A DNA stretch of 3,595 bases from Escherichia coli (GTDB taxonomy: Bacteria > Pseudomonadota > Gammaproteobacteria > Enterobacterales > Enterobacteriaceae). Shown piece by piece: positions 1 through 2,560 of this stretch. The stretch lies in assembly GCF_003334305.1 (NCBI RefSeq), contig NZ_QOWS01000052.1; one strand, given 5' to 3'. The position numbers were made by a program, and so were the translations under genes. Position 1 is the stretch's first letter; the number at the start of each line of letters is the position of its first letter. A model generated the notes under the pieces. That model was not told where the DNA came from. It saw only the letters and a program-made list of their open reading frames with translations, and did not search any database.

Positions 1-135
1 TTACATAAGATCATTGATACTCAACGTATCGACATGATCATTGTTGATGAAGGCATTCCTGCGGATAGTCTGGAAGGCTTGCGAAAGGCTGGGGTTGAAG
101 TGATTCTGGTCGGGGAGCTCGCGTCTTCGCTGTGA
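1..135 (+). CDS. agaR: 3' end (last 44 codons plus TGA) of a DeoR-family sugar-responsive transcriptional repressor, AgaR-like; 5' part lies upstream of the window
   Basis: Frame 1 is open from base 1 to TGA at 133-135 and reads [44 protein letters not shown], a typical C-terminal end of a DeoR-type effector domain. The symbol rests on memory of E. coli AgaR and on convergent synteny with a garD-like gene; not verified by search. Confidence 0.55.
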
Positions 136-140
136 TTCAC

Positions 141-171
141 TATGCCCGATAAACAAGCGTTATCGGGCATA
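141..171. terminator. Perfect 12-bp inverted repeat (TATGCCCGATAA / TTATCGGGCATA, 7-nt loop) between convergent genes; probable bidirectional terminator
   Basis: 141-152 pairs exactly with 160-171. It lies between the + strand stop at 133-135 and the - strand stop at 198-200. There is no long T tract on either side, so the assignment rests on position and stem length. Confidence 0.5.
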
Positions 172-197
172 ATACAACTTAATGTATGAAGAGAATA

Positions 198-1354
198 TCA
201 GGCCACCGGTGCCGGGTTAAACACTGCCAGCTGGTTATGCAATCCCCATTGATCCGAGATGGTTTTCTTCTTCCCGCTGGCGACGTCGAGAATAAAGTGG
301 AACAACTTCCAGCCCACCTCTTCAATGGTCTCTTCGCCGGTAGCGATAGTGCCTGCGTTAATATCCATTAAATCAAACCAGTGGTTCGCCAGCCCGGTGC
401 GGGTCGCCATTTTAATGACGGGTACCTCCATCAGGCCGTACGGCGTACCACGGCCGGTCGTAAACACTTGCACGGTGATACCCGAAGCCACCTGTTGCGT
501 GCCACAGACAAAATCGCTGGCTGGCGTCGCGGCGTAAATTAATCCGCGTTTAGTCGGGTGTTGACCGGGCGACAGCACTTCAACAAGTGCGGTTTTACCC
601 GATTTAGCAATGGAGCCGAGTGCTTTCTTTACCACGTTGGCGAGGCCGCCCTTTTTGTTGCCCGGCGAAGGGTTGGCGCTGCGGTCGGTTTTGCCCATAT
701 CGGGATAGTTATCGTATCAGGCCATCTCTTCGAGCAGACGCCTGCCCACTTCTTCATTGATGGCGCGTGGCGTTAACAGATGAATGGCGTCGCGTACTTC
801 AGTGACTTCGGAGAACATCACCGTTGCGCCGCAGCGCACCAGCAGGTCAGAGTCGTAGCCGACAGCGCGGGGTTAGTGGTAACGCCGGAGAACGCGTCGC
901 TGCCACCGCACTGCATGCCCACCACCATCACTTCGCCACCGAAGTTTGGGTTCAGCGCAATATTATGGATGGTGCGAATTGGCACCACGGCGGCCGGTAC
1001 ATTAATCGCTACGCCACAGCCGTAGAGGTGGTTCAAGTCGACCACGCCGTCGATGCTCAGGTATTTCGGCAGCAGGTCGCGTTCGATAATTTTAACCACG
1101 TAGTCCTCAACGTCTGCCATGCAGTGCACGCTGGTGGTAATACCCAACAGGTTTTTGGTGCCCACGCTGCCGTCGGCGTTGCGGTAACCTTCAAAGGTGT
1201 AATCTTCCTGCGGCGGCTGCGGCTCCGGCACTTTGGTCGCCCGAGGCAGGGTGTTAAGCGGCGGCGCTTTCGGTAGCGTGACCGTGGATTCGTCGATCCA
1301 GCTGCCTTTGGCGACATCGCGTACCGTGTAACCGATAGCGAATGATTTCACCAT
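198..1354 (-). pseudogene. garD: Galactarate/altronate dehydratase family (GarD/UxaA-like) gene remnant, disrupted by an in-frame stop and a frameshift and apparently lacking N-terminal and internal segments
   Basis: ORFs 198-698 and 818-1450 on the - strand are in different frames. Both carry family motifs ([20 protein letters not shown]-terminal FNPAPVA; SWIDES, GYRNADGSVGTKN, HLYGCGV, MQCGGSDAFSG). Re-reading the gap in the downstream frame gives continuous protein-like sequence ([24 protein letters not shown]...LLEEMA) ending at an in-frame TGA (717-719 on +), six codons before MGKTD. The frame switch lies within 858-876. Sequence upstream of about 1355 has no family resemblance. Confidence 0.7.
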
Positions 1355-1516
1355 TATGAGGAAGGTTGTTATCCCTTTTCTGGCGTATTCGTCATTCCAT
1401 TCGTATCCCCGGTACCGGATGTTTATATCGTACAGTGCCGGTGCTGGCATGCTTTCCTGCAGGTCTGCACCGGTTTAACAAACAAAACTTAACAGAGTCT
1501 GAAGGAGTAGTATTCC

Positions 1517-1654
1517 GTGCAAATAACCGAAGCGTTACTTTCAGAGCCGGGAGATATCTGGCGTTTTGTTCAGCAGGCGGTGGACCACTGGCCGCGTCTG
1601 CTGGCAGTCCACTTCACGCGTCATTCGACCAGAGTAAATATTGATGATTACTAG
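1517..1654 (+). CDS. Candidate small ORF (45 aa, GTG start) with a strong Shine-Dalgarno; hypothetical
   Basis: GAAGGAG at 1501-1507 lies 9 nt before GTG at 1517. The ORF reads MQITEALLSEPGDIWRFVQQAVDHWPRLLAVHFTRHSTRVNIDDY with stop TAG at 1652-1654. It is below the length cutoff of the ORF track. No family recognised; it could be the N-terminal stump of a destroyed gene. Confidence 0.3.
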   Translation: MQITEALLSEPGDIWRFVQQAVDHWPRLLAVHFTRHSTRVNIDDY

Positions 1655-2127
1655 ATTCGTGTATTTTATCAGGCATTTTACTTGCGAATAAATCCCCTTG
1701 CTATCCAGCGAAACCACTCAGGTAGCTATTACCATATGTGGTAATACACTAGTTACAGGAAAAATATGCAAGTTCCGCAATACGTTGTGTGTTGCTCCTT
1801 AGCCAGGATCTTTTCTTCCATGCGAGATATGACAACAATTTTGAGGAAGGATGTTCGTAACTGGTAGAGTTACTACAACAAGCATGGGAGGCTCTGACTC
1901 TGACAGACATTGTACTGTGGAATGTTGTTACAGGTTGGGGCGGCAACCGTGCCAGGAGACCATGAGCCGTTCACGGCATTAAAGGCCACACTTCAGTCGT
2001 TTACATTCCCTATGGTGGCAGGCATCTTCCATTAAGGCGTCAGAGCGTTACCAACGTTATGTTGTCATGGCTCATCTTTCATAGTCGATGCTTATCTGGT
2101 GGCTGAAACTAGCCGCAGATAAAGAGT

Positions 2128-2560
2128 GTGAAGTTGATACCATGGAGTGGAGTGACGTGCAGGCAGGAGATTCGCTCTATGCAGGGTTGTGAGATGAATT
2201 CAAACCGGCTGGCAGCGCCAGTGATATTCGAAGATTCGTCCGGTTGTTACCCAGTATGCATTAAAAACCCAGACATTATGGACAATATAACGGCTTCTAC
2301 AACAAGGAAGTGCCTGTTTACCATCCGGGTGTAATGACTCACCTTTGTGGGCTTTTGCCCGTCGCGCTCTTAACGTTGAAGACATTCTCTGCCTGCTGAT
2401 TCAGGACTGCGACAAAAGCCATATCTGGCTACTGGTCAAGGATGACCAGCGTCTGGAGTAGGTGATAAGCCAAATAGATAAGCTGGAATATGTGGTGAAA
2501 GTGCAACGTAATCAGTCCAATCCGACGATGTTTAACAAGATTGTGGTGTTTTTTCAGTAA
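2128..2560 (+). other. Possible decayed + strand coding remnant convergent with the DeoR regulator gene; identity unknown
   Basis: An ORF at 2179-2334 (51 aa) has AGGAG 9 nt upstream of its ATG. A second frame is open 2291-2457 (…[31 protein letters not shown]), hits an in-frame TAG at 2458-2460, then continues [32 protein letters not shown] to TAA at 2558-2560, one base from the regulator stop at 2562-2564. Open-frame lengths are only weakly above chance. Confidence 0.2.

Follow-up and report, generated by a model that had tools for sequence, protein, structure and literature searches.

The stretch of Escherichia coli DNA considered here (3,595 nucleotides of contig NZ_QOWS01000052.1, hereafter the window) opens with the 3' end of agaR, which converges on a garD-like sequence across a short spacer, without the prlF-yhaV toxin-antitoxin (TA) pair that lies between the two genes in strain K-12. 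We conclude, with a probability of about 0.9, that the window is part of the integrase-proximal backbone of an E. coli island inserted at serX (the PAI-serX/SRL-PAI family; PAI, pathogenicity island) and that it carries a captured piece of the core chromosome. The garD-like sequence, designated garD' below, is a truncated and chimeric pseudogene.

Several complete E. coli chromosomes match the window at 100% identity. In that of UMB200201_11, the window lies at 2,840,569-2,844,163, within an island of ~71 kb which extends from serX to a 19-nt direct repeat of the serX 3' end. The insertion at a tRNA 3' end, the direct repeat, the tyrosine integrase and a mosaic cargo with insertion sequence (IS) elements and pseudogenes are the marks of a tRNA-associated genomic or pathogenicity island. 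The same chromosome carries the native locus at 586-594 kb in the K-12 order kbaZ-agaR (269 aa)-yhaV-prlF-garD (intact)-garPLRK-rnpB, and the window is therefore a second, island-borne copy. The order garD-prlF-yhaV-agaR, which a preliminary description of the window had given for K-12, was thus found as the native locus of UMB200201_11. ECONIH1 also contains the full window plus a TA-containing native junction, and IHE3034 combines the island module with a native TA-free locus.

Altogether 5,426 complete E. coli genomes were searched. The K-12-type garD-prlF-yhaV-agaR interval, counted at a coverage of at least 80%, was present in 5,135 of them, a native TA-free junction in 188 genomes of phylogroup B2 (ATCC 11775, IHE3034, E2348/69, APEC O1/IMT5155) and the island-type junction in 504 (311 at at least 99% identity, 195 at 95-99%). 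These are separate totals; ECONIH1 and IHE3034 each carry two of the states. At least 80% of the window was found in one place in 275 genomes. Among the matches listed, agaR was annotated as intact in the copies of at least 99% identity and as frameshifted in the ~98% copies. The native TA-free state agrees with the presence of YhaV in only 2% of ST95 and ST12 isolates (PMC10790755). The island-type junction also occurred on two records classed as plasmids, e.g. NZ_CP148478.1 (37,854 bp), which may be a mobilised island fragment or an unplaced contig.

The gene identities proposed in the preliminary description stood at the level of homology for both genes, although garD is not an intact gene. 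Positions 1-117 of the window encode the first 39 of the 44 AgaR residues present, and these are identical (39/39) to residues 231-269 of K-12 AgaR. The full island gene (11311-12132 of L001, the stretch that holds the window plus its flanks; L002 below is the K-12 stretch, and both are numbered separately from the window) is intact and encodes 274 aa (WP_000072197.1), which differ from K-12 AgaR by I111L and by the 5-residue C-terminal extension LASSL. It passed both AgaR equivalog models, NF040755 with 463.1 bits (curated cut-off 260 bits) and NF007316 with 575.2 bits (cut-off 351 bits). Across the island agaR, the intergenic region upstream of it and the kbaZ stub, the DNA agrees with K-12-type E. 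coli at 98.1-98.3% and with B2 strains at 97.2%, so the left part of the captured fragment is E. coli proper.

By its homology to AgaR, the island protein should be a DeoR-type repressor of the aga regulon. The kbaZ-agaR intergenic region, which comprises the promoter and operator region, is kept beside the island agaR and is ~98% identical to that of K-12. No functional kbaZ/aga operon was found divergent from the island agaR, where only ~70 nt of kbaZ, an inverted duplication and an aldolase remnant are present; the functional aga operon of UMB200201_11 sits at the native locus. Since the cognate operon on the island is cut to a 70-nt stub, the island AgaR is able to act solely in trans, and the extra protein would at most add repressor dosage on the native aga regulon. 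The frameshift of agaR in islands of the sfa type, which are described below, argues that the island copy is dispensable. In the kbaZ stub just upstream of the window (L001 10976-11040), the exact point at which the truncated kbaZ joins the 3' remnant of a kbaY/gatY-like aldolase gene is marked by a perfect 23-bp inverted duplication (CAGCACAAAGCGGGCAAAACAAA ... TTTGTTTTGCCCGCTTTGTGCTG). This duplication is a rearrangement scar, and any transcript from the kbaZ promoter would fold there into a very strong hairpin.

The two stop codons are indeed 62 bp apart with only a hairpin between them, as the preliminary description had noted, and its statement that no TA pair intervenes was confirmed: a tblastn search over the whole window detected no homologue of PrlF or YhaV (best E 6.1 and 0.62, respectively). 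When the window was compared with K-12 by blastn, the matches were confined to agaR and garD. In the K-12 locus (b3128-b3131), agaR and garD are convergent just as in the window, and agaR and the 3' ~500 nt of garD are homologous, with 92-98% DNA identity. The K-12 stops are, however, separated by ~1 kb which includes prlF-yhaV, and this intervening sequence is unrelated to the 62 bp of the window. The window further differs from K-12 in an AgaR that is 5 residues longer, in the truncated chimeric garD pseudogene and in its site in the serX island instead of the native map position.

The spacer hairpin consists of a perfect inverted repeat (Table 1). Folding of the 71-nt stretch around it gave a minimum free energy near -20 kcal/mol (z = -4.0 and -4.3 for the two strands). 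The stem at 141-171 lacks a following T-run on both strands, and the consensus scan for intrinsic terminators was silent; because a U-tract is missing, the hairpin was not read as a canonical intrinsic terminator. It may be an old 3'-end structure common to the two convergent transcripts, which would serve as a stabiliser or a barrier.

In the comparison with genomes that lack prlF-yhaV, which the preliminary description had proposed, the window spacer proved homologous, apart from an 11-bp indel, to the one between agaR and garD at the native TA-free locus of B2 strains. The stems (ATGCCCGATAA/TTATCGGGCAT in the B2 allele) are invariant between the island and the B2 native allele, and four loop positions differ. 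The B2 allele also encodes a 274-aa AgaR ending in ...ASSL, with the tail ...GDHASSL as compared with ...GELASSL in the window. In contrast to the window, it occupies the native site, contains an intact garD (1,572 nt) and has a 51-bp spacer; the two junctions are 87.7% identical over 211 nt. A donor of the spacer was also sought by blastn among 80 species-level agaR loci (one AgaR-bearing genome per species), which gave 0 matches.

We also considered whether the TA-free spacer is a plain deletion derivative of the K-12 allele. The elements common to the two spacers are only the hairpin ends ATGCCCG/CGGGCAT and the 9-mer TGATTCACT, which is the reverse complement of the prlF 5' untranslated region, and they occur in a non-colinear order. 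These few elements do not support such a derivation, and the 9-mer was not treated as evidence because, by our own estimate, ~0.6 such matches are expected by chance.

The homology of garD' to GarD begins only at codon 59 (window position 1367), and the N-terminal codons 1-58 are missing. The K-12 GarD was matched by tblastn in two pieces, residues 73-215 at 1336-908 in frame -1 (83% identity) and residues 302-522 at 866-204 in frame -3 (93% identity). TIGR03248 is the only NCBIfam model matched by garD', which identifies it as GarD rather than another member of the UxaA family. The piece that covers profile positions 342-506 scored 306 bits and the one that covers positions 59-200 scored 241 bits, both below the cut-off of 730.85 bits. 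No intact open reading frame (ORF) for a galactarate dehydratase of ~523 aa was found in garD', the longest ORFs of the region having 166 and 210 aa. RefSeq labels the stretch 'UxaA family hydrolase; frameshifted; internal stop; missing N-terminus' and flags it as a pseudogene in every genome listed. The garD' sequence is thus non-functional and unable to encode galactarate dehydratase. The view of 198-1354 as a garD-like gene that starts at 1354 therefore had to be abandoned: the sequence is a truncated, chimeric pseudogene and the ATG at 1352-1354 is coincidental.

The chimeric nature of garD' was apparent from identities calculated per 100 nt. From 198 to 697, it is 88-98% identical to E. 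coli garD (K-12, the native gene of the same genome and B2) and 80-87% identical to garD of Kluyvera genomosp. 3 YDC799, whereas from 698 to 1297 the identity is 86-95% to the Kluyvera gene and 76-87% to E. coli garD. The blastn matches to Kluyvera genomosp. 3 reached 92.2% over 700-916 and 92.4% over 917-1340. Of the informative sites to the left of position 630, 63 are of the E. coli type and 7 of the Kluyvera type, while 17 and 106, respectively, were counted to the right, which places a breakpoint at ~630-693 (Fisher p = 8e-27). The 219-bp segment that has been deleted from the window but survives in the sfa-type copy is 93.6% identical to Kluyvera genomosp. 3 and 74% identical to K-12. 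These patterns suggest that a recombination crossover within garD joined the E. coli chromosome to the DNA of a Kluyvera-like donor. In the 80 species loci, no homologue of the island DNA that lies past garD' or upstream of the kbaZ stub was found beside agaR or garD.

The relatives of the island make it possible to order these events. In IHE3034, PAI-IHE3034-serX occupies the interval 1,123,943-1,185,632 (PMC7545054), in which we found an integrase, YfjI, a Gp2-like gene, enterotoxin, MalY-like, malX', aldolase', kbaZ', a frameshifted agaR, the garD' pseudogene, a hypothetical gene, sfa and iro; the arrangement of the W224N island is the same. The garD' of the W224N type is 95-99% identical to that of the window and shares with it the truncation point and the TGA codon, but it retains the 219-bp and 11-bp segments and does not contain the 2-bp insertion. 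More generally, the PAI-serX islands of extraintestinal pathogenic E. coli (ExPEC; CFT073, UTI89, RS218 and IHE3034, with S fimbriae, salmochelin and Ag43) have the same insertion site as the window island and the same backbone of enterotoxin, malY-like, (malX), aldolase', kbaZ', agaR and garD' genes. They differ from it in carrying sfa/iro past garD', where the window island has the DeoR-family regulator and ribokinase-, fucP- and epimerase-like genes, and in their frameshifted agaR, which is intact in the window island, whereas garD' of the window has the extra deletions. The Shigella SRL PAI is likewise located at serX and contains fec and aspR-dcuA (PMC7545054); the window island resembles it in fecIRABCDE and in the genes for a racemase and a C4-dicarboxylate transporter.

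Since the chimera, the truncation and the TGA codon are common to the sfa/iro serX islands of B2 ExPEC, they are older than the split of the island versions. The 219-bp, 11-bp and 2-bp lesions are later decay in the lineage of the window, and the captured agaR-garD' fragment is thus part of the conserved serX island backbone and older than the diversification of these islands. Between the deoK-type and the sfa/iro-type islands, homology amounts to 95-99% across garD' and 77% over 1340-1929, and it is gone past ~1929. Position ~1929 of the window thus marks the border between the common backbone and the variable cargo (deoK-like or sfa/iro).

Table 1 Features of the window and boundaries of its island; positions marked 'record' refer to the UMB200201_11 chromosome, all others to the window
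Feature	Position	Strand	Basis
agaR 3' end, last 44 codons and TGA at 133-135	1-135	+	translation, tblastn
Spacer between the convergent stops	136-197		62 bp
Perfect 12-bp inverted repeat TATGCCCGATAA / TTATCGGGCATA, 7-nt loop	141-171 (141-152 with 160-171)		folding
garD pseudogene, 5'-truncated, GarD codons 59-523 minus lesions	198-1367	-	tblastn, DNA alignment
garD' stop codon	198-200	-	reading frame
E. coli-like part of garD', 92-98% to E. coli garD (K-12, native, B2), 80-87% to Kluyvera genomosp. 3	198-690	-	per-100-nt identity, informative sites
Kluyvera-like part of garD', 86-95% per 100 nt and ~92% overall to Kluyvera genomosp. 3 YDC799, 77-87% to E. coli garD	700-1367	-	identity, informative sites
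In-frame stop TGG->TGA at GarD W351, common to the sfa-type island copy	717-719	-	
2-bp GC insertion, frameshift, window-type island copy only	865-868	-	
Junction of 219-bp in-frame deletion, GarD ~213-285 lost, ~14 nt imperfect microhomology	914-927 (916/917)	-	
11-bp deletion in garD'	near 1335	-	DNA alignment
Decayed remnant of 170-aa hypothetical protein (internal stops, frameshift)	1517-1990	+	tblastn 60% and 45%, two frames
Pseudogene annotated 'acetolactate synthase small subunit / ACT domain', adjoining the DeoR-family regulator at its stop	2334-2560	+	RefSeq; 5 stops in one frame read
DeoR-family regulator, intact, 261 aa	2562-3347	-	NF007961 230 bits, under cut-off 244
tRNA-Ser(GGA) serX, adjoining ghrA, island boundary	record 2,794,903-2,794,990		
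19-nt repeat of serX 3' end, beside tyrosine integrase, then phoH, island boundary	record ~2,866,160		

The captured piece comprises ~2.4 kb: ~70 nt from the start of kbaZ, the intergenic region between kbaZ and agaR, agaR itself, the TA-free spacer with its one hairpin and the 5'-truncated garD. Its source may have been an E. coli lineage with a native locus lacking prlF-yhaV, like that of ST95-type B2 strains today; the crossover inside garD would then have joined the fragment to foreign DNA, and the fragment would now hitch-hike on the island. Some observations weigh against this reconstruction. The integrase is located at the serX-distal end, so the island may be composite or internally rearranged. 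The Kluyvera-like donor is matched at only 92%, and the 80 species loci do not include the true donor. The intact agaR in ~311 genomes possibly reflects selection rather than neutral hitch-hiking, the gene being frameshifted in ~195 genomes with sfa-type islands. Finally, any role of the island AgaR or of the hairpin is inferred.

The alternative which survives best is that the island agaR and the kbaZ promoter/operator have been kept as a regulatory cassette for the malX-like phosphotransferase system (PTS), malY-like and 'enterotoxin' genes, although we consider it improbable. An AgaR-repressed kbaZ promoter would then read via the kbaZ stub and the aldolase remnant, and the genes would respond to N-acetylgalactosamine or galactosamine. 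All these genes follow the stub directly on the kbaZ strand, a scan of this strand at L001 10500-11400 called no terminator-like site, the kbaZ-agaR intergenic region is well preserved, and the window-type island has intact copies of both agaR and malX where the sfa-type has broken ones. The perfect 23-bp inverted duplication at the kbaZ truncation could, however, block read-through, and malX has its own upstream region. Moreover, the malY-like and enterotoxin genes are intact in the sfa-type island despite the broken agaR, and the joint decay of agaR and malX is known from two island versions only. If the cassette were real, the island malX-like PTS, malY-like and enterotoxin genes would be under mucin-sugar (N-acetylgalactosamine/galactosamine) control. 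Low odds are also given to two more far-reaching readings, that a working agaR cassette also alters native aga repression, and that the garD' chimera is a datable inter-genus recombination scar of the assembly of the serX backbone.

It is very unlikely that the window is a native garD-agaR locus which never gained, or cleanly lost, prlF-yhaV, i.e. the ancestral TA-free state in situ. Such loci do exist in the 188 genomes described above, with the homologous spacer and the same extended AgaR C-terminus, and the published scarcity of YhaV in ST95 and ST12 points in the same direction. Against this, garD of the window is truncated and chimeric, and the junction shows only the 87.7% identity and the 11-bp indel relative to the native TA-free allele. 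The flanks, which are island genes and not garPLRK and the aga operon, together with the canonical locus with prlF-yhaV in the same genome, ruled this candidate out.

Even less credit can be given to 198-1354 as a functional paralogous 'large subunit' gene of the UxaA family, read from the ATG at 1354 in a new sugar-acid locus with an AgaR-like regulator. Split UxaA-family genes exist in other bacteria, and both the presence of this ATG and the fact that the 219-bp deletion is in frame would fit. The stop at 717-719, the frameshift near 865 and the deletions, with residues ~213-285 gone, nevertheless refuted an intact split UxaA-type gene, as did the short ORFs, the TIGR03248 scores far below the cut-off and the pseudogene flags of RefSeq. 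An assembly or scaffolding artefact that joined agaR to a foreign garD fragment, for which only the chimeric look of garD' speaks, is the least probable explanation of all, since the same arrangement is present in the 275 complete genomes and the junction in the 504 genomes from many laboratories and platforms.

The preliminary description had considered the junction to be either the ancestral TA-free arrangement or a paralogous locus. The second possibility held, with the island copy present beside the native locus; the first is true only indirectly. Within the 80 loci, only those of E. coli, E. albertii and Escherichia sp. MOD1-EC7003 had yhaV-prlF between agaR and garD, while agaR and garD converge directly without TA genes in ~45 species of other Enterobacteriaceae genera, with spacers of 36-250 bp and assorted hairpins. 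These genera include Klebsiella, Kluyvera, Citrobacter, Raoultella, Enterobacter, Lelliottia, Kosakonia, Trabulsiella, Pseudocitrobacter and Phytobacter, and also Salmonella arizonae/diarizonae. Direct convergence is therefore the family-ancestral layout and the TA pair an insertion in the Escherichia lineage. The pairs of these species resemble the window in their convergence, in the short hairpin-bearing spacer and in the absence of TA genes, but their spacers and hairpins were not homologous to the window spacer (blastn, 80 loci).

In TA-containing Escherichia, the hairpin AAAACATGGCACTAAGGCCATGTTTT (L002 8878-8900, between garD and prlF in K-12) is located just before the garD stop. It is almost the same as the only hairpin in the agaR-garD spacer of Pseudocitrobacter faecalis, and close variants occur in Kosakonia and Phytobacter (L081, L044, L062, L082); the hairpin AAAACATGGC..GCCATGTTTT is shared by these three genera and the TA-containing Escherichia allele. 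The TA-containing allele therefore keeps the ancestral spacer, and prlF-yhaV was inserted on its agaR side. This hairpin was not found in the E. coli TA-free alleles, either native B2 or island. The agaR stop codon is the exact point at which the TA-free alleles depart from the K-12 type, and the K-12-type AgaR ending (...LVGE*) is found in Buttiauxella as well. The E. coli TA-free allele is probably a derived replacement rather than the untouched ancestral state, because the ancestral garD-proximal hairpin is absent from it though kept in the TA-containing allele; a long-standing polymorphism is the less likely alternative.

Further observations concern the sequences around the TA pair. The arms ATGCCCGCTGG ... 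CGGCGGGCAT of the K-12 agaR-yhaV hairpin (L002 9820-9860) resemble the first prlF codons ATGCCCGCTAA (9330-9345) in either orientation, so that the TA cassette looks as though it were flanked by short inverted repeats, which may be chance; the TA-free hairpin likewise begins with ATGCCCG and ends with CGGGCAT. Strain E69 (L008), a GTDB species representative labelled E. coli, carries prlF-yhaV and is probably a cryptic Escherichia lineage: its agaR region is 91-92% identical to K-12, native and B2 sequences, with ~90% for E. albertii.

As for the rest of the island, agaR is preceded, in this order, by genes for an AAA protein, enterotoxin, a MalY-like and a malX-like protein, aldolase remnants and the kbaZ stub. 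It is followed, beyond garD', by the decayed hypothetical gene, the ACT-domain pseudogene and the DeoR-family regulator, which is divergent from ribokinase-, FucP- and aldose-1-epimerase-like genes (L001 15650-18939). We take this layout to match that of the deoQ/deoKPX deoxyribose-utilisation operon. A deoK operon has been reported on PAI II-AL862 at pheV (PMC7545054), unlike the deoK-like genes here, which are on the serX island. The 170-aa hypothetical protein (WP_001167426.1), elsewhere named 'UCP030791 family putative phage-derived protein', is intact in sfa-type serX islands, and its remnant at 1517-1990 belongs to the common serX island backbone; RefSeq calls just a 45-aa ORF (1517-1654) within it.

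Farther cargo comprises IS elements, hypT, the racemase and C4-dicarboxylate transporter genes, amino-acid antiporters, fecIRABCDE, Ag43 and cbtA/cbeA, and remnants of IS1, IS3 and IS600 were found within the island. In UMB200201_11, the integrase adjoins the direct repeat and the tRNA borders on the cbtA/cbeA end, which may point to a composite or inverted island; an annotated 'RtT sRNA' feature overlaps the serX repeat. In ATCC 43896, the window region is in two pieces with an inserted ISEc52 (IS3 family).

The captured fragment is core-genome DNA that survives as an ordinary relic on a tRNA-associated island of a known class, RefSeq already annotates its pseudogene, and the lack of yhaV at the strain level in some B2 lineages has been published before; our literature search for agaR or garD in serX islands returned nothing specific, the results being swamped by the word 'agar'. 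The significance of the finding beyond bookkeeping is small. It does mean that agaR beside a garD-like frame without prlF-yhaV is no ground for inferring the loss of the TA pair from a strain: ~9% of complete E. coli genomes carry this junction as an island-borne duplicate, with the native locus at another place and usually containing the TA pair. The serX island backbone would preserve a fossil TA-free E. coli allele joined to Kluyvera-like garD sequence, a possible marker for tracing the assembly of serX islands. In the Escherichia lineage, prlF-yhaV went in between agaR and an older, still recognisable terminator-like hairpin.

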